From Myxococcota bacterium (GTDB taxonomy: Bacteria > Myxococcota_A > Polyangia > Polyangiales > Sandaracinaceae): DNA of 64,000 nucleotides. The stretch is from NCBI GenBank assembly GCA_036149055.1, contig JAYZQJ010000057.1:1-64000 (forward strand), given 5' to 3'. The translations under genes and the position numbers were made by a program. The notes beneath the pieces are model-generated. The model did no database searches. It was not told the DNA's origin and worked only from the letters and a program-made list of their open reading frames with translations. Shown piece by piece: positions 12,570-52,436 of this stretch (the stretch's first letter is position 1; the number at the start of each line of letters is the position of its first letter).

Positions 12570-12931
12570 GGGGGCGTACCGGTTTCGACGAGGGTGAAGA
12601 AGCCCTGGTGGCGTGTCGCCGGACTGAGTAACGGCGTCAAAAACATCTCGGAACCCATAAGTGCGAACGACAACGCGCTTGCTCTCGCTGCTTAGTCGCA
12701 GTTAGGGAGCCGTCGAAGGAAAGAGCCCGTCAGCGCTCTTCTGGAGGCGTCATTGAGCTGACTGGCCTGATCCCGCACGGTCCGGGGTGAGGGCGAGACT
12801 TCAGGACCGTTGGCGTCACGTGTAGCCCGCTCTCGGGCGCCTCGTGATGCGACAACAAAACGAGAGCTACACACGTAGAAGCCAGAGTAGCGGAACGCTT
12901 TCGGACGCGGGTTCGACTCCCGCCGCCTCCA
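12570..12931 (+). ncRNA. ssrA: tmRNA (transfer-messenger RNA)
   Basis: Acceptor stem GGGGGCG (12570-76)/CGCCTCC (12924-30) with G3:U pair, T-arm GCGGGTTCGACTCCCGC, tag ANDNALALAA-stop at 12663-12695. Confidence 0.97.
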
Positions 12932-14199
12932 CTAGAAATGCAGGGGTCAATCGCACCCTCGCCACCATTCCCGCCACCATGGGCGGAGGGCGGCGGGGGC
13001 TGCGGTTGGCCGCTCGTCGCCTCACGCACCGCCTCGAGCTCCACCACGGGCGCGCGCTCGAGGCCGAGCCGGAGAGACCCGACCGCCTCCGAGAGCGCGG
13101 TCCACTCCCAGTCGGTGTACCCGTCGACGACGTCCCCGCGCGCGTTGTGCGTGACCCGCTCGAGCACGTCCTTCCGCGCGCCGTCCGAGCGCGCGAGCGA
13201 GATGAACGTGTGGCGGAAGGCGTGGCACGCGCGTCCCTTCTTGGCGCCTGGCTCGCGGTGCGGGATCCCGACTCGCTGGAGGTCGCGGTAGAGCGCCTTC
13301 ACCGCCTGGTTCTGGGTCCGCGGCCGCCCGGTCCGGGGGTCGGGGCAGAGCCAGTCGTCCGGGCTCGGATGCCGGCCGTAGAGCTCGGCGAAGCCCTCGC
13401 GTCGCCAGCGGTCGAGGATGTCGGCGAGCGCGGGGTGCACCGGGACGAGGCGCTCCCGCGTGTCCTCGCCGTCGTCGGCCGTCTTGAGCGGCTGGTCGTC
13501 GTACTGGCTGTGGACGAGCAGCGCGCCCAGCCCGGACGTGTCCGTGTCGTAGTCCCGCCAGCGCCGCCCGGACGCCTCGCCCAGCCGGAGCCCGCCGAGC
13601 CCCATGAGCGCGTAGAACACGCGCCGCCAGTCCGGGATCGCCGGGTCGGTGAGCAGCTGCCAGAGCTCCTCACGGCTGAACCGCGGCTTCCGCTTCTTCG
13701 CGACCCGCGGCAGCTTCCCCCGCGGGAGGCTCGCCGGGTTCGTGACGATCACCTCCTCGAATCGGGCGAGCTCGAGCATCGAGCGGAGCACGCCGTGGAC
13801 GTTGCGGATCGTCTTCGCGGCCAACTCCCCCCGGAGATCCCGGACCATCGCGTCGACCATCTTCGGCGTGAGGTCCTCGACGCGGACGCGGCCGAGCCGG
13901 GGGCGGATGTGGTTGTCGTAGCAAGCCCTCGCGTCGTCGAGCGAGCGCATCCCTTCGCGCTCCTTCTCGGCGGTCCAGTAGTCCGCGAGCTCGTCCATGA
14001 GCATCCGGGCGTGGGGCCCGCCATGCACGTAGGTGCCGGCCTTCACCTCGGCGAGCCGCTTCTCGCGGAGGCGCTTCGCGGCGCGCATCGTCGAGCCCGC
14101 CGGCTCGTACCGGCGGACTCCGTGCTGGTCGTAGAAGTTGATCTCGTAGACGGTCTTGCCGCCGATCGAGCGCTTCCGGATGCCGGTCGCCTTCGCCAT
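12730..14199 (-). CDS. int: Prophage tyrosine integrase (ORF extends into antisense ssrA)
   Basis: Arm-binding-like N-terminus; catalytic R (GLRLGE), K (LKT), HAFR, H (THN), Y (DGY). Confidence 0.92.
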   Translation of the reverse strand: MAKATGIRKRSIGGKTVYEINFYDQHGVRRYEPAGSTMRAAKRLREKRLAEVKAGTYVHGGPHARMLMDELADYWTAEKEREGMRSLDDARACYDNHIRPRLGRVRVEDLTPKMVDAMVRDLRGELAAKTIRNVHGVLRSMLELARFEEVIVTNPASLPRGKLPRVAKKRKPRFSREELWQLLTDPAIPDWRRVFYALMGLGGLRLGEASGRRWRDYDTDTSGLGALLVHSQYDDQPLKTADDGEDTRERLVPVHPALADILDRWRREGFAELYGRHPSPDDWLCPDPRTGRPRTQNQAVKALYRDLQRVGIPHREPGAKKGRACHAFRHTFISLARSDGARKDVLERVTHNARGDVVDGYTDWEWTALSEAVGSLRLGLERAPVVELEAVREATSGQPQPPPPSAHGGGNGGEGAIDPCISSGGGGSRTRVRKRSATLASTCVALVLLSHHEAPESGLHVTPTVLKSRPHPGPCGIRPVSSMTPPEER

Positions 14200-14474
14200 C
14201 AACCCACCTTGCCCCACTCCATGATCTCCGCCTCGACGAAGCGGACCTCTTTCCCGCCGAGCTTCCGGTGGGGGAGGCCGTCACGCCGGGCCCACTTCAG
14301 CACGGTCTCTCGGCCAACGCCCATGCGCTCGGCTGCCTCCTCTGCCGTGAGCAGCCGAAGGCTCGCGCTCTTGCGCTCCTCGAGCGCCTCCCGGACGGCA
14401 GCGGCGATCAGCTTGCGCAGGGTCGTCATGTCGGTGATCACGACGCCGTTGTGCAGGTGGTCGAGGTCAGCCAT
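14199..14474 (-). CDS. xis: Excisionase-like HTH protein
   Basis: LLTAEEAAERMGVGRETVLKW...LP..K.GG..VRF; directly upstream of int. Confidence 0.85.
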   Translation of the reverse strand: MADLDHLHNGVVITDMTTLRKLIAAAVREALEERKSASLRLLTAEEAAERMGVGRETVLKWARRDGLPHRKLGGKEVRFVEAEIMEWGKVG

Positions 14475-17256: not shown

Positions 17257-18031
17257 CGGCCTGCTCCTTTCGCAGCGCCTCGAAGAGCAGCGGGAGGAGC
17301 GCGTCTTTCACCACGCCGAAGCTGTGCGGCTTGCGGTAGACCGCGCTCTCCCAGTAGTCGTCAGCGATGACCCGGTGCAGGTCCTCGTCGGCGAGAGCCT
17401 CCTGGAGGAGGAGCTCGGCCGGCGCCGATGAGTCGAGCTCGTCGAGGGCTCTCCACGCGGCGCGCGCCTCGTCGCGGGTGAGACCACCGCTCCGGCGGGC
17501 CTCGAGCACTTCCGCGCGCCAGCCCTTCACCGTCGCCCGCCCGTCGAACTCGTCCGGCACGCCCGCGAAGAGCTTGCGGGCGACGTAGTCGGCGCCGACC
17601 CACATCCCGAGCGCGTCCGAGAGGTGCTGCGACTCGCAGAGCCAGGGGCCGCGCCACCAACGGTGCGACCACGTCCCCCAGTCCGAGACGAGCGCGAGGG
17701 TGCCGTGGGTGTCGTCCACGTAGAACGCCGCCCAGCCCCGGCCGGCGCCAGGGACCTCGATGCCGTCGAAGCGGTAGACGCGTGTCGACGGCTCGCCGGC
17801 CGCCTCGCCCACCAGCGCAGCTGCATGAAGCACCGCGTCTGAAAGCTCGTGACCCTCGGAGGCGCTGATCTGAGGGAAGCTGCCCGGGGCCACGAGGCGC
17901 TCGGCCAGCTCGACCGTGCGCTTGCCGAGCAGCTCCTGGAGCGTCCCGACGTGGGGCATCAGGACCACGTCCGACGGCCTGAATGGCGGGGCCTCCGTGA
18001 CACCTTCCCGCGCACCTTCTTCATTCGCCAT
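17249..18031 (-). CDS. Hypothetical phage protein
   Basis: GAGGAGG RBS before ATG 18031; GTLALVSDWGTW...DYVARKL. Confidence 0.65.
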   Translation of the reverse strand: MANEEGAREGVTEAPPFRPSDVVLMPHVGTLQELLGKRTVELAERLVAPGSFPQISASEGHELSDAVLHAAALVGEAAGEPSTRVYRFDGIEVPGAGRGWAAFYVDDTHGTLALVSDWGTWSHRWWRGPWLCESQHLSDALGMWVGADYVARKLFAGVPDEFDGRATVKGWRAEVLEARRSGGLTRDEARAAWRALDELDSSAPAELLLQEALADEDLHRVIADDYWESAVYRKPHSFGVVKDALLPLLFEALRKEQADA

Positions 18032-18129
18032 GAACCCCTCCTCGGCGCCCTCGCTCGGCGCCAGTGATACGACCGGCCGAAATCGGCTGATTCGCACGCA
18101 AATCGTGTGCGGCGTTGCATCTCGTCGTG

Positions 18130-18218
18130 TTGTCCGAGCGGAGCAGGGTCGAAACCCCGGAAACAGGCCCAGAAGACACGCGGGGCCGCGGATTTGAAAT
18201 CCCGCGACGTCTACACCG
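18130..18218 (-). pseudogene. Degenerate tRNA-like remnant (tRNA-Leu-like 3' two-thirds), possible att-site relic
   Basis: Minus strand GTAGACG-tc-GCGGGA-TTTCAAA-TCCGC-GGCCCCGC...GGGC...CGGGGTTTCGACCCTG...CTCGG; no 5' acceptor strand found. Confidence 0.45.
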
Positions 18219-18313
18219 CATATCACGAAACGTTGCCCTCAAATTCATTCCTGATCCGAGCGCGAATTTCGGCCGATCACTCGCGCCGGATTCCGTCAAC
18301 TTCGCTGATCCGG

Positions 18314-18808
18314 TCACGCCGACGCCTCCTCGGCGCAGACGGCCAGCGGCGCGACGACCATCAGCCACCCGTCGCCACGCGCGACGAGGACCCGGAGCGG
18401 GTCCATCCCGGCGTCCATCGCCCCAGCCGCGACGCTCCGATCGCCCGAGAGCTGTCCGACGACACCGATGTGCGCGGCGAGCCTGGCGTCGACCAGGACG
18501 CCGGCCAGGGTCAGCCGTCCGTCCCTCCCCGGGCGCTCCGCCGCCTTCCGGATCAGCGCCCTCGAGCGGAGCCGTCGAGGCAGCTCCGCGGCCGCGGCGC
18601 GCTCGAGGAAGGGCGGGAGGTTCGCCGGGACGTCGGAGAGGTGGTCCTGCTGTCGCGCGCTCGCGAGGACCGGGGCCACGAACGCCTGATCGACGGCCGC
18701 GCGCATCGCCCACTCGCGAGCGCGGCCCCAGAGGTAGACCATCTCGGCTTCGACTCCGATCGCGAACGGCACCGCGACCTCGAGGCCCTTGAGGCTGCCG
18801 TTCGTCAT
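18314..18808 (-). CDS. Hypothetical phage protein
   Basis: ATGA-coupled to the upstream gene. Confidence 0.55.
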   Translation of the reverse strand: MTNGSLKGLEVAVPFAIGVEAEMVYLWGRAREWAMRAAVDQAFVAPVLASARQQDHLSDVPANLPPFLERAAAAELPRRLRSRALIRKAAERPGRDGRLTLAGVLVDARLAAHIGVVGQLSGDRSVAAGAMDAGMDPLRVLVARGDGWLMVVAPLAVCAEEASA

Positions 18809-19428
18809 CCGCCGCTCCCCCGCCGACGAAGCGGCCGCGGCGGCGTCCGCACCGCGCGCGAGACCTCCCAGCCGTACTTCACGAGCCGGACGTAGATGGT
18901 GCTCGCCGCCGCGCGCGCCTCGGGCAGCCGAGCGAGCTGGCCGATCGAGTAGAGCTCGTCGTCCTCCCAGCGCCAGACGAGCGCACTCTGACGGCCGCGC
19001 GCGCCGCGGCCGATGCTGGCGCGCTCCGGAAGCGCCGAGGCCTCGCCGGGCTCGCGTCGCTGGGTGACGCGCTCGCCGCGCGGAGCGTGGTCGGGCCGCA
19101 TGGGGCCGCGCCCAGCGAGCCAGGCACCCACGAGCTCGGGCGCATCACCCTCGGCGTGGCCGAAGCGCCCGGCGAGCGCGTCGAGCGCGTCCTCGCCGAC
19201 CGCGACGCGCAGTCGACGGGCGAAGGTCCGGAGCGCGTCGGTCTCGATCTGCCGGATCCTCTCGCGCGTCACGCCGAACGCGGCCGCGACGTCCTCGAGG
19301 GCCGCCCCGTCCGGCCAGTTCGACCGGAGCATCTGACAGCGAGGGTCCTCGGCGTACGGGGTCTCGAAGTCGAGGAACGGCTCGTCGGCCTGCTCGTCGT
19401 GCGCGAGCGCTTCGGTTCGGGAGCTCAT
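18805..19428 (-). CDS. Sigma-70 region-4 domain protein with a second HTH-like domain
   Basis: ALEDVAAAFGVTRERIRQIETDALR closely matches sigma70 region 4.2; C-terminal STIYVRLVKYGWEVSRA. Confidence 0.8.
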   Translation of the reverse strand: MSSRTEALAHDEQADEPFLDFETPYAEDPRCQMLRSNWPDGAALEDVAAAFGVTRERIRQIETDALRTFARRLRVAVGEDALDALAGRFGHAEGDAPELVGAWLAGRGPMRPDHAPRGERVTQRREPGEASALPERASIGRGARGRQSALVWRWEDDELYSIGQLARLPEARAAASTIYVRLVKYGWEVSRAVRTPPRPLRRRGSGG

Positions 19429-20693
19429 GAGGTCACCTCCGACAGCTCGGGGATGGCGCGGTCCATGTCGGCCAGGTCGCCGAGGCCGAGCTCGGCGACG
19501 AGCCTGGCGGCGCGCCGGTAGCGGTTGATCATCGCGCTCGAGCGGTGGCCGGTGCGGTCGGCGACCCAGGTCTCGGTCTTCTCGTTCGCGAGTGCGATCG
19601 TGATGTAGGTCGCGCGGAGGTCGTGGAGCCGGATCGGCTGCCGCGTCTCGCTCCGCTCGTAGAGCTCGGGCCGGTCGATCCCGGCGCTCCGGAGCTGCTC
19701 GCGGAAGCGCGGCGTCGCACGGCCGTCGCCGCGGGTGATCAGAGGCTCGCCCGCCTCGTCGACGAAGACGCGGTCGTCGCCACCGCGGCGCGCGCGCCAG
19801 GCGCGGAGCGCCCGGGCGCAGTCCGGGCGCAGCGCCCAGGCTCGCGGCTCGCGGGTCTTGTTTTCGACCAGGGCGACCGCGCCGCGCTCGAGGTCCACGT
19901 CCGCCCAGGCCAGGTCGGAGGCCTCGCTCCGTCGCATGCCCTCCCGCGCCATGAAGCCGTACAGCAGCCGGAAATGCAGCGGGACCGAGCGGCAGCCGAG
20001 GAGCGCGCGGTCCTCGTCGGGGTAGAGGAACGTGTAGGCCTTCTCGTCGGCGAGCTTCGGCAGGAACCCCTTGGGCAGCGGGTTCGCCGTGATCACGCGC
20101 GCGGGGAAGTGCGCGAGCGTCAACACGCGCGCCATCACCTGCGCGACGTGTCGGCGCGTCGCGGGCTTGAGGTGGGCGGGCAGGCGCTCCATGACGGCGA
20201 GCGCGTGGTCGAGCGTGATCTCCTCGAGAGGGATCGTCCCGATGACCGGGTAGACGTGATTCTCCAGGCGCCGCGCGTCCTGCGTCGCGGTCTTCTTCTT
20301 CTTGATGTGGTCCGGGTACCGGCTCCGCAGCTCGCCGCTCGTCCACGCGTAGCCGAACTCCGCGAAGGTCATCGACGCGACGGGCGGCGGCGCCGCCTCG
20401 CCGGTGCTGAGACGGCGGATCGCCTCGAGCGGGCGCTCGTGCCGGTCATCGCTCCCGCCGATCAGCTGGAGCAGCGTCCTCGCGAGCTCCGCGCCGACGG
20501 GCTTCTCGGCGGCGCGGAGGAGGCAGGCCTGCTCGGCGAGCAGGCGCGCCCGGGCGCGGGCCTTCTCCTGGTCCTCGACCTCCCGCGGGCAGGTGGTGAG
20601 CTGGACCGTGCACCGCGAGCTCCCGCGGAGGGTCACGATCGCGCGCCAGCATCCGCCGTAGTAGCGGATCGACCCCGTCGCTTGCCGGCTCAC
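19425..20693 (-). CDS. Second tyrosine recombinase/integrase
   Basis: TGSI N-terminal arm; catalytic R (EGMRRSE), K (NKT), HDLR, GH, Y (NRY). Confidence 0.92.
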   Translation of the reverse strand: MSRQATGSIRYYGGCWRAIVTLRGSSRCTVQLTTCPREVEDQEKARARARLLAEQACLLRAAEKPVGAELARTLLQLIGGSDDRHERPLEAIRRLSTGEAAPPPVASMTFAEFGYAWTSGELRSRYPDHIKKKKTATQDARRLENHVYPVIGTIPLEEITLDHALAVMERLPAHLKPATRRHVAQVMARVLTLAHFPARVITANPLPKGFLPKLADEKAYTFLYPDEDRALLGCRSVPLHFRLLYGFMAREGMRRSEASDLAWADVDLERGAVALVENKTREPRAWALRPDCARALRAWRARRGGDDRVFVDEAGEPLITRGDGRATPRFREQLRSAGIDRPELYERSETRQPIRLHDLRATYITIALANEKTETWVADRTGHRSSAMINRYRRAARLVAELGLGDLADMDRAIPELSEVTS

Positions 20694-21034
20694 TTGGCCG
20701 CGCTCCCGGGCACGCAGCCCTGCTCCATGAGGAGGCGGTCCACGTCGTCGAGCTCCGCGGCGTTCGGCACGCGCTGAGCTCGCCGCGACGCCCCGGACTC
20801 GTCGCCCAGCCGGGCGAGGTAGGCCATCAGCGCCGTGCGCTCGACCATGCGGGTCTTGCCGAGCTTCGACACGTGCGGCGCCCCGTCCCGACGGAGCAGC
20901 TCGAGGAACTTCCGCTTCGAGAGTCCGAGGAGGTGGCAGTTGTCCTGCGTGTAGTAGTCCGGGTGCGCCTCGGGCAGGTCCGAGCGCCGGATCTGCACGC
21001 GGGCATCCGCCTCGATGAAGCCGTCCTCAGGCAT
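20690..21034 (-). CDS. Excisionase-like DNA-binding protein
   Basis: LLGLSKRKFLELLRR...SKLGKTRMVER..LMAYL HTH plus wing; coupled to the recombinase. Confidence 0.6.
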   Translation of the reverse strand: MPEDGFIEADARVQIRRSDLPEAHPDYYTQDNCHLLGLSKRKFLELLRRDGAPHVSKLGKTRMVERTALMAYLARLGDESGASRRAQRVPNAAELDDVDRLLMEQGCVPGSAAK

Positions 21035-21404
21035 CGGCCGGCGTCTCCGGCAGCGATGCGACGAGCCGCTCTCGAGCTTCCCGGTAGCGGAGGGTCGCCT
21101 TGTCCCGCTCCTTCGCGGCTGTCCCGCGCTCGCTCCGCGCGCGCTGCAGGGCGGCCTCGGCCTCCGCCTCGAGCTCGGCGATCCGCGCCGCGAGTCGCTG
21201 GTCGAGCGCCTCCAGCTCGGCGTCTCGCTCCGCGCGCGCGGCGTCTCGCGCCACGTCGAGCAGCCTCCCGAGCTCCGCCTCTTCGCGCTCCGCCTCGGTG
21301 AAGCGGCGCGTCGCTGCGTCGATGGCGGAGAGCGCCTCGTTGACCTCGGCGACGCGCGCGGCGCGCCGCTTCGCCTCCCGGGCGATGTCGACCTCGGCGC
21401 CCAT
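21027..21404 (-). CDS. Coiled-coil hypothetical protein
   Basis: A/E/R-rich helical ORF in the operon. Confidence 0.6.
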   Translation of the reverse strand: MGAEVDIAREAKRRAARVAEVNEALSAIDAATRRFTEAEREEAELGRLLDVARDAARAERDAELEALDQRLAARIAELEAEAEAALQRARSERGTAAKERDKATLRYREARERLVASLPETPADA

Positions 21405-21405
21405 C

Positions 21406-21777
21406 TCAGCCCAGAGCCTTTCGCAGGGTGCCGCGGAGCTTCTCGAGCTCGTTCTTGAGGCGCGTTCTCTCCCAGATCAGTCGCTTGACCTCCGAGTGGA
21501 TGTCGTGCGTCGCGACGGCGAGCAGCTCGGCGACGGCGTCCAGCGTGGCTGCCGCGCCCTCCGCGTCCTCCGACTCGTGTCCCTCGTCGGCGGCGAGCGG
21601 GCAGGGCGAACCGAGCTGGACGCCCGGGGGTACCTGCCAGACGACGCGCGCGCCGCCCTCCTCGTCCTGCTCGACGTGGAGCGTGAGGCATCGGTTGCGG
21701 CCGACCTCCTTCACGATGGCTTCGGCCTTCCGCTCGCTCTCGCTTCGATAGATGTCTCGCGCTTCCATCACTTCCAT
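21406..21777 (-). CDS. Hypothetical phage protein
   Basis: GGAGG RBS; fits operon tiling. Confidence 0.55.
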   Translation of the reverse strand: MEVMEARDIYRSESERKAEAIVKEVGRNRCLTLHVEQDEEGGARVVWQVPPGVQLGSPCPLAADEGHESEDAEGAAATLDAVAELLAVATHDIHSEVKRLIWERTRLKNELEKLRGTLRKALG

Positions 21778-22451
21778 GCCTCCCGGCCGCCGAGCTGGCG
21801 GGCCTCCTCTTCACGCAGGCGCGCCATCTCGGCGGCCATCTCCTGGTCGACCTCGGCGCGCGCCACCTCCGCGACGCTCATCCGGTGCCGGGCGCCCGTG
21901 CGCATCGCCCGGGCGAGGAGCTCGGTCTCGTCGAGGCGCTCGAGGTCCGAGACTCGCTGGGCGATGCGCGCGCGGCGCGTGCGCTTGGCGACGGCCCCGA
22001 ACTCCACGAGCCGCGCGCGGAAGCCAACGCGCCGCGCGAGCTCGTCCGGAACGGTCCAGAGCCCCTGCCGCCCGCGGCACTCGAGCGGCGGGATCGGGAT
22101 CACGCGCTCGAGCACCCAGCCGATGCACCCGGGGATGAACCAGCCGGACTCGCCGGCCGCGCGCGCTGCGGCGTCGTCCAGGTCGCCAGCGAAGTCGAAT
22201 CCTCCGCCGCCGCTGACGCGAATCCACCCGCGGAGCCGCGCGACCCCGACGATCCCGGTGGGGCTGTCCTCGCTCAGCCGGGGCCGGTCGCCCTCGGGCC
22301 AGACCGAGTCGGCGTCGAAGCGCTGCCCGGCGTGGATGGCGAACATGCAGCCGATGGCTGCGGCGGGCGGGCGCCATGTGCGGTTCTCGACCCGCTTCGT
22401 GCTGTGCACGATCGCGTCGGACCACGGGCGGTGGAGGGTGAGGGCCTTCAC
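21768..22451 (-). CDS. ASCH-domain protein
   Basis: KALTLHRPW..AI...KRVENRTW...IHAG...GIVG...GW.L...RGRQGLW. Confidence 0.85.
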   Translation of the reverse strand: MKALTLHRPWSDAIVHSTKRVENRTWRPPAAAIGCMFAIHAGQRFDADSVWPEGDRPRLSEDSPTGIVGVARLRGWIRVSGGGGFDFAGDLDDAAARAAGESGWFIPGCIGWVLERVIPIPPLECRGRQGLWTVPDELARRVGFRARLVEFGAVAKRTRRARIAQRVSDLERLDETELLARAMRTGARHRMSVAEVARAEVDQEMAAEMARLREEEARQLGGREAWK

Positions 22452-23509
22452 GCTCGACCTCCGAACGCGTGCGGGAACTCGCGCACGCGCAGGTCCTCCG
22501 GCCACTCGGACGGGTCTCCGCCCTTGCGGTTGCGCAGGTGCACGCGCTCGGGCCGCCGTCCGGCGGGTCCGATGTCATCGGGGTAGAGCCCTGCGGCGAC
22601 AAGGCTCGCCTCCACGGACTGCATCGGCGCCGCCCCGAGCTGCTTCACGAACACCGGCACGCCGGCGGCGCGGCACTGCCGGATCGTCGACCGCGCCCAG
22701 GCCAGGTCGAACGGACGCGCACCCGGGCCGCTCTCTCCGCCGATCACGACCCAGTCGAGCCGCCACGGAGTGTCGGTATGCGTTCCACCCCCGACGAGCG
22801 GGTTGAACGGGACGAGCGGGTGGTCGCGGTGGAAGGGCACGCGCGCGAAGTCGACCCCGGCCAGCGCCGGCTCGTAGCTCACCCATCGGACGGCTGCGGG
22901 CAGGCAGAGGATCTCCGGGATGCGCTTCTGGGCGGTCGGCGGGTCCTCGATGCTCACACCGATCCAGACGTTCGGCAGGGGCCAGGCCTCGGGGCGCCCG
23001 ACGAACCTCAGCGCCAGGTCGAGCCCGCCCGCGCTCACGGTGTCGAGCGCATCCGCGGCGGCTCGACGGCACCGCCGAAGCGCGTCCCCCGGCGACAGGT
23101 GGCCGCCCTCGGCCGCCCACTCAAAGAACTCGGCCGCCCGCTCGGGCCGCTTCGTGAGCACCTGGAAGGTGTGCTGCGGCGCCGCGGCCATCACGCCGAA
23201 GACGGCCGCGATGTACTCGAAGGGCACGGCCTCGTGGAAGAGGTCGGACATCAAGTTGACGAACACCATCCGCGGCTTGCGCCACCGGAGCGGGGCGCCG
23301 AGGTGCTCGGGGACCTGGCGCACCGTGCCGTTCCACCGCGCACGCGGCTTGCCCTCGCCGTCCAGTCGCACCAGGCCCTCGTACGGCTTCCCCGGACCCG
23401 CGAAACGCCGCGCGACCACCTCTGCGTAGCAGTTCCGGCAGCCCTCCGAGACGCGCGAGCAGCCGCGGAGAGGGTTCCACGTGGCGTCCGTCCACTCGAT
23501 CTTGCTCAC
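22448..23509 (-). CDS. Phage Gp37/Gp68 family (DUF5131) protein
   Basis: MSKIEWTDATWNP..GCSRVSEGC.NCYAE, MSDLFHE, LTKRP, WVVIGGESG, FVKQLG. Confidence 0.93.
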   Translation of the reverse strand: MSKIEWTDATWNPLRGCSRVSEGCRNCYAEVVARRFAGPGKPYEGLVRLDGEGKPRARWNGTVRQVPEHLGAPLRWRKPRMVFVNLMSDLFHEAVPFEYIAAVFGVMAAAPQHTFQVLTKRPERAAEFFEWAAEGGHLSPGDALRRCRRAAADALDTVSAGGLDLALRFVGRPEAWPLPNVWIGVSIEDPPTAQKRIPEILCLPAAVRWVSYEPALAGVDFARVPFHRDHPLVPFNPLVGGGTHTDTPWRLDWVVIGGESGPGARPFDLAWARSTIRQCRAAGVPVFVKQLGAAPMQSVEASLVAAGLYPDDIGPAGRRPERVHLRNRKGGDPSEWPEDLRVREFPHAFGGRA

Positions 23510-24063
23510 CTCGACCTCCGCTCCGGACGAGGGCGTCCGGCGTCACGGCGCGCGGCCGCGAAAATCTCGCGGTGCAGCCGGAGGCGGCGCCGCTCGTTGC
23601 TGGGTGTCCGCGGGTCCTCGAGGCGGGCGTCGATGGCGCGCACCACGATCGCCCGGCCGCGCCGGACCCACTGGTAGAGGGCGTCGAGGCTGGGGGCCTC
23701 GAGCCCGTACTCGTCGGCGAGCTGCGCCTCGATCTCGGCCGAGGGGAGCCGGAGGATGCGGCGCTTCATCGCCGGTCGAGCTCGGCGGCGCGCGGCGAGC
23801 CGGCGGCCGGCGTCGCGGCGCGAGTAGAGCAAGAAGACGAGCTGGTCGAGCCAGAGCATCTCCGGGTCGGCGCCGGCCCGGGTCCGGGAGATGTCGCGAA
23901 GGAAGGCGCGCGCCTCCTTCGACTCGGGCAGGGGCGTCGAGATGCGCGCGCGGCGGACCGGGGCGCTCGAGGAGTCCCCCGCGTCCCCGCGTGGGGGGGA
24001 GCACGACGGGGGCGCAGAGGACTCCTCCAGCGCCGCGGCGGCGGCGTGGTCGTGACGGCTCAT
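23506..24063 (-). CDS. Hypothetical HTH-like protein
   Basis: SAEIEAQL...SLDALYQWVRRGR. Confidence 0.55.
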   Translation of the reverse strand: MSRHDHAAAAALEESSAPPSCSPPRGDAGDSSSAPVRRARISTPLPESKEARAFLRDISRTRAGADPEMLWLDQLVFLLYSRRDAGRRLAARRRARPAMKRRILRLPSAEIEAQLADEYGLEAPSLDALYQWVRRGRAIVVRAIDARLEDPRTPSNERRRLRLHREIFAAARRDAGRPRPERRSR

Positions 24064-24605
24064 CGGAACACCTCGCGGGCGCCGCCGGTGCGGAACCACT
24101 CGACCAAGAGCTCGACCTGGCGATCCGAGAAGAAGGCGCGGGTCTGTCCGGCCGTGATCCCGGGCAGGTGGCCGTGGTCGTGGAAGTGGCCGTGGTGCTC
24201 GCGGCAGAGCGGGACGGTCCGGTAGTCGTGGACCTTCTGCGAGACGCCGCGCCGCGGAGCCCAGTGGTGCGCCTCGATCCCGGACCGGCTGCCGCAGTGG
24301 CAGCACGGGAGGCTGGCGACCCAGCGGAGGTAGGCGGCGTCGCGCGCGGGGCCCTTGGGCCGGGGCTGCGGGCGGAGCTCCGGCCTCGCGAGCTCGGGCG
24401 GCGACGGGAGGGCGCCCGGCGACGCCGCGCGCCGCTCGAGCGTCGAGACGCTGTCCAGGGCCACGCGTCGGGGCTTCGCCTTGCCGTCCGGCACGACGTA
24501 GGCCTCCCCCGCGCCCGCGGTGACCTGCGTGATCCGGCCCTGGTAGAGCCGGCGTCCGCCCATGCCGCGCACCTGAACGCGGTCTCCCTCGCGCAGCTCC
24601 CTCAC
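24060..24605 (-). CDS. DUF968-like HNH/Zn-binding protein
   Basis: YLRWVASLPCCHCG...EAHH...QKVHD..TVPLCREHH..FH. Confidence 0.8.
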   Translation of the reverse strand: MRELREGDRVQVRGMGGRRLYQGRITQVTAGAGEAYVVPDGKAKPRRVALDSVSTLERRAASPGALPSPPELARPELRPQPRPKGPARDAAYLRWVASLPCCHCGSRSGIEAHHWAPRRGVSQKVHDYRTVPLCREHHGHFHDHGHLPGITAGQTRAFFSDRQVELLVEWFRTGGAREVFR

Positions 24606-24790
24606 GCTGCGTCCCTCCGGACGATGCGGAGCCGGCGGGCGGCGCGGGCGGACCGCTGGCGGACGCGCAGGGCGCAGAAGCAGCAGACGAACGCCCACGG
24701 GCCACCGGGCCAGAGGGGGCGGTCCTCGACGGCCGGGCGCCGGACGCCCCGGTGCGCGCAGGGCTCGCAGAGCTGGTCCGCGCCGATCAC
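24602..24790 (-). CDS. Small Zn-finger-like protein
   Basis: CEPC...CCFC; GTGA overlaps with neighbours. Confidence 0.45.
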   Translation of the reverse strand: MIGADQLCEPCAHRGVRRPAVEDRPLWPGGPWAFVCCFCALRVRQRSARAARRLRIVRRDAA

Positions 24791-25173
24791 CCGCACACCT
24801 CGGGCTGCTCGTAGACGACGGTCGCGCGGGAGAGGAGCCACTCCAGGCCGGCGCACCAGTCGACCCCGGCCCAGCGCTTCCGGGTCGTGTCGGTCCAGGT
24901 CCAGGGCCGCTCGCCGCCGCTGATCACCACCACGGGGAGGCGGCGCTCGGCAGCCCACGCCACCACGGTGCTCCCGCACCCGGGGCGGAGGTTCCAGTCG
25001 GTGATGACCGCGTCGAAGGCTCGGTGCTCCACGGAGGGCAGGAGAGCGAGCCTGGTCAGCGTCTCCACCTCGACGGCGTACCCGCGCCCACTCGCGGCAC
25101 GGTGGAGGGCCTTGCGGACGGCGGAGGCCTTCAAGAACTCGTCCTCGACGTGAAGGATGCGGAGGGTGATCAC
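24787..25173 (-). CDS. Stand-alone response-regulator receiver domain
   Basis: LRILHVEDE...FDAVITDWNL..G.G......LPVVVISG. Confidence 0.8.
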   Translation of the reverse strand: MITLRILHVEDEFLKASAVRKALHRAASGRGYAVEVETLTRLALLPSVEHRAFDAVITDWNLRPGCGSTVVAWAAERRLPVVVISGGERPWTWTDTTRKRWAGVDWCAGLEWLLSRATVVYEQPEVCG

Positions 25174-25769
25174 GCGCCCGCCTCCCGGTTGAGGCGCGAG
25201 ACGATGGCGCTCGCGGTCGCGGCGTCGCAGTCCAGCGCGCCCACGCGCCGTCCATCGGCGAGCAGCTCCACGTCGCCGCCGCTGACTGGCTGCAGGCTGT
25301 AGAGCGGCGCCGACTGGTCGGTGGGGTCCTCGTCGCACCCCTGGCAGATGGTGACGCCCTCGTCGTCGCTCCACGCCTCCAGGCCGGGAGCGATCCAGCC
25401 CTCGCACCCCTCGCAGCGGAGCGCGCCGGCCTCGCGGGCGTGGTCGGGGCACAGCGGCTCGTCCTCGACCTCGACGACCGCGGCGATCAGGATGCCCCCG
25501 TCGTCGTCGTCGCAGGCCGCGCAACGCCGGACGGTGTCGGCGTCGGGTCGGGCCCGGCACCGATCCCGAATCTCGGCCTCGACGACGAGCGGCGCCCCGA
25601 TCTCGGCCGCGAGCCGGACCGCACCGATGTAGCCCTCCTCGTCGATCGGACCGGTGTGGCGAAAGAAGATCCCGTCGCTCGTCTCGAGAGCGAAGACGGC
25701 GTCCTCGCAGCTCTCCGCCGCGTACTCGCGCGCGTACCAGACGCGCGCGACTCGAAGAGACCCGCCCAT
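25170..25769 (-). CDS. Cys-rich hypothetical phage protein
   Basis: CAAC, CPDH, CEGC, CQGC. Confidence 0.6.
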   Translation of the reverse strand: MGGSLRVARVWYAREYAAESCEDAVFALETSDGIFFRHTGPIDEEGYIGAVRLAAEIGAPLVVEAEIRDRCRARPDADTVRRCAACDDDDGGILIAAVVEVEDEPLCPDHAREAGALRCEGCEGWIAPGLEAWSDDEGVTICQGCDEDPTDQSAPLYSLQPVSGGDVELLADGRRVGALDCDAATASAIVSRLNREAGA

Positions 25770-26248
25770 CACGCGACCTCGGCGAGGCGCTCGGCCTCGA
25801 TCAGGAGCTCGGTGACCCGGCGGGCCGCGAAGTCCGCGTGGTAGCAGTAGGCGCGCTCGGCGCCCGACTCGTCCCAAGCGCGGAAGTAGCCGTGCTCCGG
25901 GCCGTGCTGGATGGTCCAGCCCTCGTGCTCGAGTTCGGCGTCCCGCGGGAGGTCGTGGAGCCGGGCGGCGAGGGGACCGCTCAGCTCGCGCATGAGCTCG
26001 TCGTCGTACTCGACGCGGACGTAGGTGTTGCCGCCGAGGAGGATCTCGCCGGTCATCTCGTCGCGCGAGAACTGCTCGAACTGCCGAGCCACGGCCTCGA
26101 CCTCGCTCTTGCGCACGTCGGCGCGACGGATCGTGACGTAGAGCGACGAGTCCGTGGTGCACCGGTCGGAGCGGACCGAGACGGCGCGGGCGCTCCACCC
26201 GCGGGCCTTGAGCTCGGCGCGGAGGCGCTGGGCGCGAGCGGCGCTCAT
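25769..26248 (-). CDS. LPD29-like domain protein
   Basis: LRAELKARG....VSVRSD....SSLYVTI...VEAVA..F...RDEMTGEIL.GGNTYV. Confidence 0.55.
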   Translation of the reverse strand: MSAARAQRLRAELKARGWSARAVSVRSDRCTTDSSLYVTIRRADVRKSEVEAVARQFEQFSRDEMTGEILLGGNTYVRVEYDDELMRELSGPLAARLHDLPRDAELEHEGWTIQHGPEHGYFRAWDESGAERAYCYHADFAARRVTELLIEAERLAEVA

Positions 26249-26607
26249 CACGCGACCTCGCAGAGGAGGGTGCCGACGATGAGGTGCTCACCGCTCTCGT
26301 CGAGGAGGTCGCCCTCGAGCTCGTCGGGTAGGCCGCTGTCGAGCGTGACGTCGCCCGTGGGGAAGACGCCGCCGTGCTCGCGCCGCATGTGGCGGAGCCG
26401 GGTGACCTCCCCCGAGTCCTGCAGGGCGGTGAGCTGCTCGCCCCGGTCGATGACCAGAGCCACGTCGGCGCCGGCGTCGGTGAGCTCGCCGCGGATTCGG
26501 CACGCGACCAGGCCGCGGCACACCCGCACTTCGACCTCCACGCCACCGACGACCACTAGCCCGGTCGCATCTCGTTCCGTTCCGTCGTGTCCCTGCTCGG
26601 TTCGCAT
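26248..26607 (-). CDS. First gene of the leftward early operon, hypothetical
   Basis: GGAGG RBS and upstream promoter. Confidence 0.65.
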   Translation of the reverse strand: MRTEQGHDGTERDATGLVVVGGVEVEVRVCRGLVACRIRGELTDAGADVALVIDRGEQLTALQDSGEVTRLRHMRREHGGVFPTGDVTLDSGLPDELEGDLLDESGEHLIVGTLLCEVA

Positions 26608-26623
26608 CGTCGTGACCTCCGTT

Positions 26624-26672
26624 GCGTACAGATGTACGCGCGGCCGCGAGCGATGTCAAATACAAAAGTACG
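26624..26672 (-). promoter_or_regulatory. Leftward early promoter with operator(s)
   Basis: TTGACA (26659-54), 17 bp, TACATC (26636-31); palindrome GCGTACA-GA-TGTACGC at 26624-39; degenerate copy at 26659-72. Confidence 0.75.
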
Positions 26673-26684
26673 CGTTCGAGAGAA

Positions 26685-27356
26685 TCACGAGCAGTCCGCG
26701 AAGACGTCGATGCTCGCCAGGGAGATGACGCGGGCGAACCCCGGCTCGAAGACGGGCCACGCGCGCACCCCGCCGCACGACTCCGCGGGGGCGCGCGTCT
26801 CGATCGCCGCGTCGATCGCGTCGAGCTCGTCACGGGTCGGGCGGCGGTAGGGCCAGCGCTGCCCGGGAGTCACGATGGAGTAGGGCCGGCGCGAACCGCT
26901 GGGGGTCTCGCAGTCCCACACCCAGGCAACGCCCGGCATGATGCTGACGAGTCGTCGGACGAGGGCCTCATGAGAGGCCCAGGGGTGCAAGGCCTTCAGC
27001 GCGAATAGGCAGCCCCCCGTTCGGCGCATGTCCCGCGTGAAGTCGATCCGTGGGAGAAGCAGGCACGAAGCGATCGCGTCACACACGTGTTCTGTCTGCG
27101 AAGCGTGGGGAATCCCCTCCAGGTCGCACAGGTAGTGTGCGCACTCATGAGCGACGGTGAAGCCCTGGCGCTCTAGGCGGTCGCGAGGGTTTACGAAGAT
27201 CCGGTCGCCGATGAGGCAGCCTGCCTTGAGCGAGGCGGGACCGGTGCGGACCTCGAGGCTCAGCGCCCACGCGAGCATCCAGGGGTCGACCGGGACTGGT
27301 ATTCCGCAGGAATCTAGGAGTTCGTTGGCCAGTCCTTCGCAGTCTTCCCAGTCCAC
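26685..27356 (-). CDS. ImmA/IrrE-family metallopeptidase (antirepressor)
   Basis: ERQGFTVAHECAH (HExxH), E..CDAIASCLLLP; start approximate. Confidence 0.88.
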   Translation of the reverse strand: MDWEDCEGLANELLDSCGIPVPVDPWMLAWALSLEVRTGPASLKAGCLIGDRIFVNPRDRLERQGFTVAHECAHYLCDLEGIPHASQTEHVCDAIASCLLLPRIDFTRDMRRTGGCLFALKALHPWASHEALVRRLVSIMPGVAWVWDCETPSGSRRPYSIVTPGQRWPYRRPTRDELDAIDAAIETRAPAESCGGVRAWPVFEPGFARVISLASIDVFADCS

Positions 27357-27402
27357 GAGGACCCGGACGGAAGGCGCCTGGCTGAACTGACGCTCCTTGC
27401 GA

Positions 27403-27918
27403 TCATTCTGAACGTTCTTTGCGGAATCGGCGCACGCCCTGCGAGGCGGCCTCGTCCGAGACGTCGCGCACGACCTCGCCGCCGTCGTCGAGGAGGCGCC
27501 GAGCGATGTCGAAGTACACCCCTGGCTCACTCGGAGGACCGCCCCGGAACTTGAGGTTCGCGAGCTGCTCGATCTGAGCATCGGTGAGCTCATCGAAACG
27601 GGCGAAGTCGCGCTGGAACGCCTCGAAGGCCGCCGGCCTGGTCTTCGCCCGGCCGCGGACGTGGTTGGTGTAGTGCGGCTCTCCGAGGCTCTCGTCGTGG
27701 AAGAACCTGGCCTCGAGGTGCATACGGTCCCGGACCTTCTTCAGCGTCGCCGCGCTCACCCCGGTTCGTGAGCCGTCGACGTACTTCCGCACCGACGACA
27801 ACGACAGCCCCGTGCGCTCGGCGACTCGTCCGGGCCATCCGCGTGCCCGATCGCACTCGTCCGCAAGCTGCTCGATGAGGAGGAGAAGTCGTCTGACTTC
27901 GATGGGTTGCGCCGCCAT
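27403..27918 (-). CDS. Prophage repressor (XRE-type HTH)
   Basis: RVAERTGLSLSSVRKYVDGSR..VSAATL; divergent from cro-like gene, upstream of ImmA. Confidence 0.75.
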   Translation of the reverse strand: MAAQPIEVRRLLLLIEQLADECDRARGWPGRVAERTGLSLSSVRKYVDGSRTGVSAATLKKVRDRMHLEARFFHDESLGEPHYTNHVRGRAKTRPAAFEAFQRDFARFDELTDAQIEQLANLKFRGGPPSEPGVYFDIARRLLDDGGEVVRDVSDEAASQGVRRFRKERSE

Positions 27919-28003
27919 ACGGACAAATGTGTCACGTCGAACACGTACATTGGTACGGATTCTCTTTGCGTCTGAAACGTCATTCGCGTACATCTGTGTC
28001 ACC
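27919..28003. promoter_or_regulatory. Divergent switch region with three operators and a rightward promoter
   Basis: CGGACAAATGTGTC (27920), CGTACATTGGTACG (27944), CGTACATCTGTGTC (27987); TTGCGT-17-TACATC at 27966-27994. Confidence 0.75.
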
Positions 28004-28276
28004 ATGTCTGCGACGCCCCCCACCGCGGTCGAGCGCTTCAATGCGTGGCTCTCCGACAAGGAAATGTCCTCCGCAAAGGCTGCGGAGCTCCTCGGATGCT
28101 CCGTGTCCATGGTGCAAAAGGTCCGGCAAGGGGACCGTGTGCCTGGTCTCGCGCTGGCGCTTGCGATCAAGCGCGAGTCGAGCGCCTGGGGCCCAGGACC
28201 GATTCAGCCTTCGGAGTGGGTGCTCCCGGCGAAGTCGGCGGCTCTCGCCCCGACCGGCTCGGACTCACCCCGATGA
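28004..28276 (+). CDS. Cro-like HTH protein
   Basis: MSSAKAAELLGCSVSMVQKVRQGDRVPGL.LAL.I. Confidence 0.85.
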   Translation: MSATPPTAVERFNAWLSDKEMSSAKAAELLGCSVSMVQKVRQGDRVPGLALALAIKRESSAWGPGPIQPSEWVLPAKSAALAPTGSDSPR

Positions 28277-28353
28277 CCATCACGGTAACCAGCCGACCCG
28301 GCGGCGAAACTGATCCGCCGTTCAGCACTCTGCACACCGCTTCTGGCGCGCCG

Positions 28354-28914
28354 CTACTGTCGGAGCGCGTCTCGCACGAGGGTGCTGTTGGGCGGCTGCG
28401 CCCACCACAGTCCGGAGCACGCGCGTCGCGCTTCGGACTCCAGCACGGCGGCGGCGTCGAGATGGGTGACCTCGAGTCGCCGCTCGACCACGGTCCCGTC
28501 GTCGAGCACGTGCTCCTCGTTAGTGACGCACTGAGCGAGCGCGCGCGCGCCGAAGCGATCGTCGCAGGCCTCATCGATCGCTGTCGTTCCCCCGAGAGGC
28601 TCGAGACTCGGTACCTGCCAGTCGCCGGCGAGGGTCTCGGGCGGCAGGAAGGTCGCCTCGATGGCGATGCACTCGACCACGCGACCGGCGCGACTGCGCG
28701 TGACGTGCAGCTCGCGCGTGACCTCCTGAGGGCCGTCGGGCGCCGGCGCCGCCGTCGGTCCATCCCCGACCTCGACCTGAGGCTGCTCGACCTGAGGCTG
28801 CTCGGCATGCGGCGGCGCCGGCGTGGCCCGTGGTGGCGGCGGCCAGTCCCCGCCACAGGCGAGGGTCAGCGCCAGCAGAAGCGTCGCGGACAGGGTGAGT
28901 CGAGTTGCGCGCAT
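28354..28914 (-). CDS. Antisense lipoprotein moron
   Basis: Lipobox LTLAC; TAGAAT -10 element 7 nt upstream of the ATG. Confidence 0.7.
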   Translation of the reverse strand: MRATRLTLSATLLLALTLACGGDWPPPPRATPAPPHAEQPQVEQPQVEVGDGPTAAPAPDGPQEVTRELHVTRSRAGRVVECIAIEATFLPPETLAGDWQVPSLEPLGGTTAIDEACDDRFGARALAQCVTNEEHVLDDGTVVERRLEVTHLDAAAVLESEARRACSGLWWAQPPNSTLVRDALRQ

Positions 28915-31802: not shown

Positions 31803-32872
31803 GCTGGGGCCGCTTCGACGACCGCGCCCGAGAGAACCTCAAGGTGCGCCGGGCCGGGACCGAGGCCTTCGCCCTGTGGACCGCGGCGATCCTCTGGTGC
31901 TGCGAGCACGCCACCGACGGCCGGGTCCCGAAAGAGCTCCTCCCCGACGTGTGGCGCCCGATCGGCGAGAGCTTCGATCACGCCGCGGTCGCCCGGGTGT
32001 GCGTCGAGAACCGCCTCTTCGTCGATGACGGCGACGCCTACCTCGTGCACGACTTCCTCGAGTTCAACCCGTCGAAGGCGGAGCAGGAGGACAAGAAGCG
32101 GAAGGCCGCCGAGCGAGCGCGAAGGCATCGAAGACGGAAAGCCGCCGCCGTCACGCGTGACGCAACGCGTGACGGCGCGGGTGACGATCAGCGTGATGCG
32201 ACGGGTGACGTAACGCGTGACGACGCGCGTGACGTCATGGGTGACGAACCGCGCACGTCACGCGAGGGGAAGCCGGCGCACCGTCACGCGTCGCGTGCGC
32301 ACCCCCGTCCCCAACCCGTCCCGAACCCAAACCCGTCCCCCTCTACCCCCCTGCCCCCCTCCTCGGACGCGTCGCGGGACGTCGACGGGAGCGGGAAGGG
32401 AGCTGGTGATGTAGCGGGGCTCTCCGAGTGGACCTCGTGGGCGCGCCGCGTCCCAGCCGATGCCGGCGAGGCGCAGCACCACTTCGAGCGAGCCTTCGCG
32501 ATGCGGTACGCAGCGGAGACCGCTGGGCAGCACCTGTGGAGCGCCGAGGGCGAGAAGGCAAAGGCCGCCGCGCTCGACCTCTGGCAGGCGTGCAACGGCG
32601 TCGGCGACCGATTCGCGGCTTCTGCGGAGCAGGTCATCGACCTGTACTTTCTCGACGTCGAGGTGGCTCGCGGCGACGTGAAGGCGCCCGGGGGGTTCCT
32701 GAAGAAGCACATCGGGCGGCTGTTCGAGCTGGCCGTTGCCGGCGAGGAGCCCGGCCAGCTCTCGCTCAGGGACATGGCCAGCCGCAAGCCCCGGAGGGGC
32801 TTCGTCGAAGCGGGAACCGATTTCACCGAGTGGGGCGACGCCGATCTCGTCGCCGGAGGAGGATGCCCATGA
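31799..32872 (+). CDS. Phage replication initiator protein
   Basis: MSWGRFDD...TDG.VP...VHDFLEFNPS; internal iterons; upstream of DnaC-like ATPase. Confidence 0.8.
   Translation: MSWGRFDDRARENLKVRRAGTEAFALWTAAILWCCEHATDGRVPKELLPDVWRPIGESFDHAAVARVCVENRLFVDDGDAYLVHDFLEFNPSKAEQEDKKRKAAERARRHRRRKAAAVTRDATRDGAGDDQRDATGDVTRDDARDVMGDEPRTSREGKPAHRHASRAHPRPQPVPNPNPSPSTPLPPSSDASRDVDGSGKGAGDVAGLSEWTSWARRVPADAGEAQHHFERAFAMRYAAETAGQHLWSAEGEKAKAAALDLWQACNGVGDRFAASAEQVIDLYFLDVEVARGDVKAPGGFLKKHIGRLFELAVAGEEPGQLSLRDMASRKPRRGFVEAGTDFTEWGDADLVAGGGCP
32150..32290. repeat. Iteron array (putative replication origin)
   Basis: GTGA(C/T)G at exact 12-bp spacing at 32157, 32169, 32181, 32193, 32205, 32217, 32229, 32241; inverted GTCAC at 32150, 32257, 32283. 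Confidence 0.8.
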
Positions 32873-51400: not shown

Positions 51401-52436
51401 GCGCCTCGAAGAGGTCGCGCTGCGGATCGCCGCTCAGCGCTGGCTGGCCTGGGAGGACTTCGAGCTCAGCGTCTCCATCGACCGCCCCGCGACCGTGGGA
51501 TTCGTGTCGCCGTTCGAGCCCGATCGCCCGGGGTTTCGGGAGGCCTTCGCCCCGCTCGCGTTCACGCCGATCTCCGTCGACATCGGGGGAGAGGTGGTGT
51601 TCAACGGCACGCTCGTGGACATCACGCCGAAGCGCACCCCAGACGAGCGAACGGTGGAGGTGGCAGGCTACTCGTTCCCCGCGGTCCTCGGTGACTGCGC
51701 GCCGCCCGCGAGCGCCTTCCCGCTTGAGCTCAACGGCTTGAAGCTGAGCAGGATCGCCGAGACGCTCGTCGCCCCGTTCGGGCTGGACGTGGTGATGGAC
51801 GCCGACGAGGGCGCTGCGTTCCGACGAGTCGCAGCGAAGCCGGACCAGGCGATCTTCAGCTTTCTCATGGAGCTCGCGCAGCAGAGAGGGCTGGTGATCG
51901 GCGACACGCCTGCCGGGGCCCTGCGCTTCCTGCGGTCGGCGCCGGGCGGCTCACCAGTCGCTGCGTTCCGCGAGGGCCAGCCCCCGTTGCTCAGCGTCGA
52001 GCCGCGGTTCTCGCCGCAGCAGTACTACAGCGAGGTGACGGCGATCGCGAAGACGCGCGCTGGCCGGACGGGCCAGAGCTACACGGTCTCGAACCCGTTC
52101 CTCGCCAACGAGGTCCGCCCACACACCTTCGTGCTGGGCGACACCGACGACCCGGACCTTCCGACGGCCGCGCGCGCGAAGCTCGGCCGGATGCTCGGCA
52201 ACGCGCTCGCCGTCACGCTCGAGCTGCCGACCTGGCGCAACCCGGGCGGCGCGCTGTGGTGGCCGAATCAGACGATCCTGCTCGAGGCACCCGGGGCGAT
52301 GATCTACCGCGAGACCGAGTTCCTCATCCGTGACGTGTCCCTCCGCCAGACCGCGGAGGCGCAGATCGCCAAGCTCGAGGTCGTGCTCCCGGGCGCGTTC
52401 TCTGGCGAGGTGCCGGAGTCTCTCCCATGGGTCTGA
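51393..52436 (+). CDS. Baseplate hub protein (Mu gp44/gpP-like)
   Basis: W.......SID, L.DC, LAQQRGL, W....G.LW.PN. Confidence 0.82.
   Translation: MPERLEEVALRIAAQRWLAWEDFELSVSIDRPATVGFVSPFEPDRPGFREAFAPLAFTPISVDIGGEVVFNGTLVDITPKRTPDERTVEVAGYSFPAVLGDCAPPASAFPLELNGLKLSRIAETLVAPFGLDVVMDADEGAAFRRVAAKPDQAIFSFLMELAQQRGLVIGDTPAGALRFLRSAPGGSPVAAFREGQPPLLSVEPRFSPQQYYSEVTAIAKTRAGRTGQSYTVSNPFLANEVRPHTFVLGDTDDPDLPTAARAKLGRMLGNALAVTLELPTWRNPGGALWWPNQTILLEAPGAMIYRETEFLIRDVSLRQTAEAQIAKLEVVLPGAFSGEVPESLPWV

Follow-up and report, generated by a model that had tools for sequence, protein, structure and literature searches.

In Mx8-type integrases, the att site lies in or just past the 3′ end of the int gene (PMC6070905, PMC4383910, in their accessible sections), and a swap of the tail changes the specificity of Mx8 Int (accessible sections of PMC6070905). 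An integrase acting beyond its own element is described in the accessible part of a study on Escherichia coli 536, where the integrase of one island excised another island (PMC2704930). In SPbeta, MrpR is a repressor with a recombinase fold (PMC10516654, accessible part). In prophages, a second integrase is commonly taken for a sign of tandem elements or for debris. Here, we compare these systems with a prophage that carries two pairs of integrase and Xis-like genes, Int1 with Xis1 and Int2 with Xis2. It lies in the window, the 64,000-nucleotide stretch of DNA that was analysed, which is contig C57 of the source genome G000.

The prophage starts at the tmRNA gene (12570-12932). Rightward from there follow a leftward early operon, a separate control region that encodes an ImmA-like peptidase, replication genes, head genes, a contractile tail and probable lysis genes. 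The other end of the prophage is on contig C5 of the same genome, where the second copy of the att core is found (Table 1). This tmRNA pair was the sole att pair found for the prophage, and both arms are joined as attP in the related phage L002. Int1 agrees with the Mx8/Mx9 type, as its att lies inside the 3′ end of int and its tail is swapped on integration. Among the eight members of the Int1 cluster, five read into the tmRNA, in two host variants, one of which equals the tmRNA of G001 (same genus), and the other three are attP forms on phage-size or short contigs. Every readable integration in this lineage is due to Int1 at the tmRNA and none to Int2. A sequence-only reading of the window had offered an alternative integration site as one use of the second recombinase, an idea that has gained no support so far: all copies with a readable junction are at the tmRNA. 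It had rightly placed Int2 away from an element boundary, as the tmRNA start of the prophage is about 6.5 kb away. At Int1 (window 12730-14199; contig C5 167-396), the att-in-int arrangement at the tmRNA comes with tails that differ between the free phage and two host species. Iteron-like 10-nt repeats with a 12-nt period were seen within the replication initiator gene (window 32150-32230). Elsewhere in G000, contig C148 holds an array of 14 tRNA genes (23469-28563), and the assembly has no convincing tRNA-Ser gene.

Table 1. Features of the two recombination modules and their surroundings; positions refer to the window.
Feature	Position	Strand	Basis or remark
att core, 21 bp, at tmRNA 3′ end	12911-12931	+	repeated in contig C5, 167-187
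Int1, working integrase	12730-14199	-	PHROG 1; frame passes through att into tmRNA antisense; alleles have two types of tail
Xis1, excisionase-like gene of Int1	14199-14474	-	HTH_17
Conserved non-coding element	18032-18313	.	96% column identity in three phages
Inverted repeat, 13 bp, 12/13 matching	18071-18083 / 18266-18278		flanks the palindrome
Central anticodon-arm-like palindrome, 7-nt spacer	18188-18205		within the element
Downstream gene, sigma70 region-4-like HTH (sigma-HTH gene)	18805-19428	-	start codon overlaps Int2 stop
Int2 3′ junction	19424-19442	-	18/19 nt match host tRNA-Leu(TAA) variable arm
Int2, tyrosine integrase, 422 aa	19425-20693	-	Pfam, alignments, AlphaFold model, Foldseek, tail survey
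Xis2, 114-aa HTH protein, predicted recombination directionality factor of Int2	20690-21034	-	sub-threshold HTH_17

Int2 matches the Pfam families Phage_integrase (57.2 bits, cut-off 27.1) and Phage_int_M (38.5 bits, cut-off 27). Its catalytic residues (R254, K279, H357-x-x-R360, H383 and Y392) are conserved in the family alignment, which bears out the intact R-K-HxxR-H-Y set reported from the letters alone. Both the R-K-H-x-x-R-H/W-Y set and the core-binding and catalytic fold of tyrosine recombinases are present. The predicted domains are an arm-binding (residues ~1-62), a core-binding (~105-215) and a catalytic domain (216-417), where the boundaries, like the labels Xis, arm-binding and RBS, are our own assignment. 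In the AlphaFold model (pLDDT 89, pTM 0.54), residues 7-60 form three strands and one helix, with no Pfam arm-domain match. Foldseek returned lambda Int and Tn1549 Int as best matches, with SroF also among the fold matches, and the model aligned with full-length lambda Int over 406 columns. Int2 matched the PHROG profile phrog_216 with an E-value of 3 × 10−19, and phrog_1 scored higher. The divergence of Int2 from Int1 that had been noted earlier holds, the two being weakly similar (31% identity over 169 aa, E-value of 1 × 10−11).

The Xis-like gene before Int2 was likewise recognised correctly, its HTH_17 match being just under the cut-off (25.2 bits, cut-off 27). The 4-nt overlaps of Int2 with Xis2 (20690-93) and with the sigma-HTH gene (19425-28) are real, but they are not special, since genes in this operon as a rule share 1, 4 or 8 nt with their neighbours, and Xis2 shares 8 nt with the gene upstream. 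Int2 ends five codons past the conserved core, where the next start codon overlaps its stop, and the sigma-HTH gene is confined to this phage lineage. No sigma-70 promoter was predicted in 17500-22000. Judging only by operon position, we infer that Int2 and Xis2 are expressed with the early operon on induction.

To place Int2 among its relatives, we gathered 184 loci of the family in genomes, viral contigs and metagenomes, and removed 21 that were incomplete. For the tRNA survey, deduplication left 113 non-Sorangium and 29 Sorangium loci. A tRNA gene (48) or tRNA fragment (37) was found just 3′ of the conserved core in 85 of the 113 non-Sorangium loci, and at most 350 nt from the core end in 37/44 loci with at least 50% identity to Int2. 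The commonest whole-tRNA target was tRNA-Leu (22/56 loci, not deduplicated). Only three of the 29 Sorangium loci had a tRNA gene or fragment, and the other 26 represent a multicopy subfamily. Directly past the core, 57 of 142 family loci carry a tandem 8-mer with a period of 11-13, compared with none of 652 control windows. We read these repeats as putative arm-type sites; they vary between family members and are integrase-specific. An Xis2-like gene is located upstream of the integrase in 61 of 144 family loci, and the genes at this position in L163 and L114 are 46% identical to Xis2. Because relatives pair an Xis-like gene, an integrase, a 3′ tRNA att and arm-like repeats, Xis2-Int2 is a coherent terminal module of the Mx8 type.

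The surroundings of Int2 differ from this usual layout. No tRNA fragment follows Int2 in the window clade at an E-value of 10−6, and none that was convincing was found elsewhere in the prophage. Neither an own attP nor an attL/attR pair of the lambda type was found for Int2; a scan for attP architecture, which recovered one of eight positive controls and missed attP1, is not counted as evidence. An att inside the int 3′ end with a tail swap, as in Mx8 and Mx9, was not found either, the end being identical in 15/15 alleles. The main feature, that the family normally has its att at the 3′ end of the gene whereas Int2 has none, had been missed in the sequence-only reading. Short frames are not rare, as 19 of the 163 complete loci outside the phage clade stop within 25 codons of the core, and several short-frame loci carry a tRNA fragment after the stop. 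The hallmark of Int2 is a short frame that lacks an att and is coupled directly to the gene that follows. A tandem 8-mer 43 nt past the Int2 core lies inside the next gene in the window and in the related phage L001, and is absent in L002.

Like the integrases of Mx8 and Mx9, Int2 is a myxobacterial tyrosine integrase with an upstream HTH gene; as in those integrases, the frames of Int1 and of most Int2 relatives continue through att, and their tails change upon integration (PMC6070905, PMC4383910, accessible sections). Int2 differs in having neither an att in or after the gene nor a variable tail, and in being a second copy, located within an operon. Mx8 did not appear among the 20 of 48 phage-collection matches to Int2 that were listed. 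With lambda-type heterobivalent integrases Int2 shares a predicted three-domain structure, the best folds (lambda Int and Tn1549 Int) and an adjoining Xis-like gene, but it has no identified cognate attP and is not at an element end. The small second recombinases of PHROG 216 and Cre-type resolvases resemble Int2 as second recombinases away from att, whereas Int2 scores higher on phrog_1, is 422 aa long and comes with a predicted arm-type domain at the N terminus and a putative Xis. Resolvases of the Cre/Xer type have two domains, lack an arm domain and an Xis and use a simple palindromic site. Int2 does not conform with this type, as it has 100 additional residues at the N terminus that are under selection, together with a predicted Xis partner. 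Multimer resolution by Int2 would fit poorly with its predicted arm-binding domain and Xis.

The cassette is conserved at the same place in both related phages, L001 and L002, where it is 96% identical and where Int1 is also present. Contigs of four further runs, from four studies, include long pieces across the cassette junctions. A clean empty site, by which the sequence-only reading would have recognised a nested island, was found neither in L001 and L002 nor in the contigs shown for the four runs. Viral contigs searched with the downstream gene, Int1, ImmA and P0008 yielded the same two phages and no close relative without the cassette, L001 and L002 being the only two relatives with DNA for this comparison. 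Of 96 joints in assembled DNA contigs (four of 22 runs), the 15 listed have sides of 20-36 nt and resemble chance matches rich in GC.

All 15 alleles of the Int2 cluster stop at one and the same position and have the six catalytic residues; 14 are 422 aa long and one is N-terminally short. Since the alleles are 93-99% alike, the invariance of the six residues is weak evidence alone. The sources of alleles with at least 90% identity name them Sandaracinaceae. The dN/dS ratio was 0.13-0.24 for Int2 and 0.16-0.33 for Xis2, compared with 0.08-0.10 for Int1, 0.09-0.11 for ImmA and 0.37-1.4 for three neighbours (orfB 0.43-0.93). Within Int2, the catalytic domain had a pN/pS of 0.11-0.14, and for the arm-binding domain two of three pairs gave 0.17-0.22. 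Purifying selection was significant in all three pairs for the catalytic domain and in two of three for the arm-binding domain. Fisher p values for Int2 ranged from 5 × 10−5 to 1 × 10−15. With the same position in two phages, the shared short end, these dN/dS ratios and no empty site, a domesticated second system is supported at the sequence level. The earlier observation is confirmed, and its interpretation is partly supported.

We consider it very probable that Xis2-Int2 was captured by module exchange. In phylogenies (FastTree, and a quick-search IQ-TREE of 55 rows), the window clade of Int2 has a long stem, intact catalysis and no resolved sister. In G014, the prophage at the tmRNA has an Int1-type gene (68-69%) and lacks Int2. 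In L163, a prophage end that carries an Int2-type module is located at tRNA-Leu(CAA). The G014 and L163 prophages share four early genes at 51-64%, and Int1-type and Int2-type modules are therefore interchangeable phage ends that are exchanged between phages. A methylase gene directly precedes Xis2 in L002 and Xis1 in L001. We infer that two early-operon ends were fused in the window lineage and that only the distal one retained its att, Xis2-Int2 having presumably come from the terminus of a myxobacterial phage that targets a tRNA. That a terminal module was captured and its att lost is well supported.

A second divergent phage with the same two-integrase layout is probable, judging solely by the longest contig size of 11,787 nt that is shared by P0008 (tail-less, 54% to Int2) and P0186 (attP-form Int1-type, 68%). 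The grouping of P0008 with P0016 within a clade that bears tails (SH-aLRT 95-96) suggests an independent event.

The similarity of the Int2 3′ junction to a host tRNA (Table 1) is probably a chance match, helped by an RBS-plus-start motif, and that it is a real scar seems doubtful. The stretch also serves as RBS and start codon, a comparable chance match was seen at 51512, P0008 ends with the same spacing, and near relatives use the orientation opposite to that of the match. The variable arm of tRNA-Leu(TAA) differs in the other family genomes shown, none of 31 matching. Such a match was found at only two of 3276 gene ends, the other one overlapping a real tRNA.

As att was lost throughout the lineage and all three domains are under selection, Int2 may have its substrate elsewhere. 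The mechanism that we tentatively favour, with a probability of roughly 0.3, is that Xis2-Int2 acts in trans and excises or blocks co-resident prophages of the same family. When the phage is induced, Xis2-Int2 would be made with the early operon, Int2 and Xis2 would cross-react with the att sites of rival prophages that use the same integrase family, and co-resident tRNA-integrated prophages would be excised or jammed. A possible rival is the prophage at tRNA-Leu(CAA) in L163, whose Int is 54% identical to Int2 and whose Xis is 46% identical to Xis2. Its host flanks are 98.9% identical to contig C284 of G000 over 9870 nt, the tRNA-Leu(CAA) site is empty in G000, and G001 has a module near-identical to that of L163 at tRNA-Leu(CAA). 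Trans-excision of rivals is favoured because the flanks of L163 match the host and the module is of the same Xis/Int family. The proposed action resembles the cross-talk of pathogenicity islands in E. coli 536, where an integrase acts on the att of another element (accessible part of PMC2704930); the difference is that the island integrase still serves its own island, whereas Int2 would have no own site.

Several observations count against action in trans. The candidate target integrase is only 54% identical to Int2, and the arm-binding domain of Int2 is only ~43% identical to its nearest relatives. Cross-recognition is doubtful because arm repeats differ between family members. L160 and L163 are from a single metagenome assembly, which places the two prophages together in a population. 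G000 itself has no other integrase of the Int2 family, so there is no target in this genome. Among the joints listed for the DNA contigs of the four runs, none spoke for such a rearrangement. If a rival prophage is the substrate, Int2 would be part of a recombination-based phage-phage conflict. An extended version, in which myxobacterial tmRNA phages captured a rival integrase-excisionase pair at least twice, dropped its att and fire it on induction against tRNA-integrated competitors, seems rather improbable.

The main rival explanation, which we think somewhat unlikely, is that Int2 and Xis2 act in cis on a displaced site, the conserved non-coding element (Table 1), for a second integration route or phage-dimer resolution. 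The phage would then have two integration or resolution systems. The element is a candidate displaced att or structured RNA leader, and it could be a regulatory RNA leader instead. Besides its conservation in three phages and the inverted repeat that flanks its centre, similarity to tRNAs argues for a site. The palindrome matches the anticodon arm of a tRNA-Leu(TAA) at 19 of 20 positions, which none of 85 control windows reached, and that of tRNA-Ser(TGA), the target of the L005 family integrase, at 18 of 20, which four of 85 reached. The spacer is identical to the loop of tRNA-Ser(TGA) in G001, and its orientation is the antisense one used by near relatives. Furthermore, one NCBI assembly contains, on two contigs of 2.85 and 1.57 Mb, two phage copies (GAB5541315-23 and GAB5547763-70; P0121 is GAB5547766 and P0123 is GAB5541322), and therefore one may lie outside the tmRNA. 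Judged by accession order, however, neither copy is near the genes flanking Leu(CAA), Leu(TAA) or Ser(TGA), and the Int1 cluster consists of tmRNA readthroughs and attP forms.

The element itself also provides arguments against a site for Int2. As both halves of a tRNA are missing from it, the target tRNA would be destroyed by integration. Its 17-nt core has no match within two mismatches in the host, the assembly of which is without tRNA-Ser genes, and no exact 15-mer match occurs in 31 family genomes. The element is intact in all three phages, three bases of the inverted repeat are changed in L002, and the gene beside it has five cluster members compared with 15 for Int2. In two lineage variants, one annotated gene in one assembly and a 3,698-nt contig with four of the genes, the sigma-HTH gene and an 84-aa gene lie much closer together, and the element is therefore possibly dispensable.

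Searches for homologues of the element yielded nothing beyond short matches in 150 genomes and, among viral contigs, five 18-mers that were unrelated, and its similarity to host tRNAs was not above that of shuffles. The fold z-score was -1.8, with compensatory changes in none of 78 pairs in three sequences (no covariation), and Rfam returned two chance matches only on 17800-21500. A degenerate tRNA-like fold was seen as a weak Rfam tRNA-Sec match at 18138-18219 on the minus strand (16.3 bits, cut-off 47, searched on 18100-18260); neither G000 nor G001 had a tRNA-Sec over the cut-off. Conservation extends from the element into the first 28 codons of the next gene, after which the phages diverge at 17949. 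A peak of the motif RATCRG at the element was discarded, as this motif had been picked post hoc.

If neither a rival prophage nor the element is the substrate, Int2 would be an ordinary mosaic relic. It would then be the remnant of a mosaic fusion that has no substrate and stays intact only via translational coupling, the cost of broken alleles or allele flow from phages where it is the main integrase. That no substrate was found, the mosaic neighbouring genes, the young lineage suggested by the similarity of the Int2 alleles, and G014, where an Int1-type gene occurs alone, are consistent with a relic. Still, we regard a relic as unlikely, since the dN/dS ratio of Int2 is near those of Int1 and ImmA and below those of neighbours such as orfB, with the Fisher p values given above. 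In addition, none of the 15 alleles bears an att, and the clade stem is long with intact catalysis.

Quite unlikely is a role for Int2 as a DNA-binding regulator, like the SPbeta repressor MrpR, or as a blocker of att cores against superinfecting phages, rather than as a recombinase. Int2 sits among HTH genes, and both it and SPbeta MrpR (YopR) or phi3T SroF are second recombinase-fold genes inside a temperate phage. However, MrpR keeps three of seven catalytic residues, having lost the others, and is without an arm-binding domain (PMC10516654, accessible part), whereas Int2 keeps R, K, H, R, H and Y and has a predicted arm domain. An ImmA-like peptidase is, moreover, already present in the separate control region.

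That Int2 and Xis2 assist Int1 at the tmRNA att sites is very unlikely: they share an operon and direction with Int1, but Int2 and Int1 are little alike, Int1 has its own Xis and arm repeats, and the Int1-type prophage of G014 is without Int2. A nested mobile island inserted in the prophage, to which the variable junction upstream of Xis2 with its methylase in L002 might point, is largely refuted and extremely improbable, as there is no empty site in the material above, the cassette GC equals that of the surroundings and, as stated earlier, flanking direct repeats are missing (Int2 3′ junction against 21000-27500, best local score 12).

The literature listings covered, with few subscription journals among them, showed no myxophage with a second integrase devoid of att. 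The integrase passages of bioRxiv 10.64898/2026.09.14.751636 contain no statement on dual integrases.

Integrases of the Int2 family were also seen in other genomic settings. In small or unrelated phages, namely L091 (5761-6966; KX853514.1, Rctr16k), L083 and L084, the integrase gene is located in mid-genome; a tRNA-Leu fragment follows it in L083 and L084 and none in Rctr16k. Sorangium chromosomes each contain several family copies without a tRNA target, forming a transposon-like multicopy subfamily (L013, L017, L018, L022, L024, L026, L029-L031, L035, L037-L045, L047, L051, L052, L055, L056, L058-L060 and L066). The copies of this subfamily share a tandem repeat ~170-190 nt past the core and an AT-rich motif.
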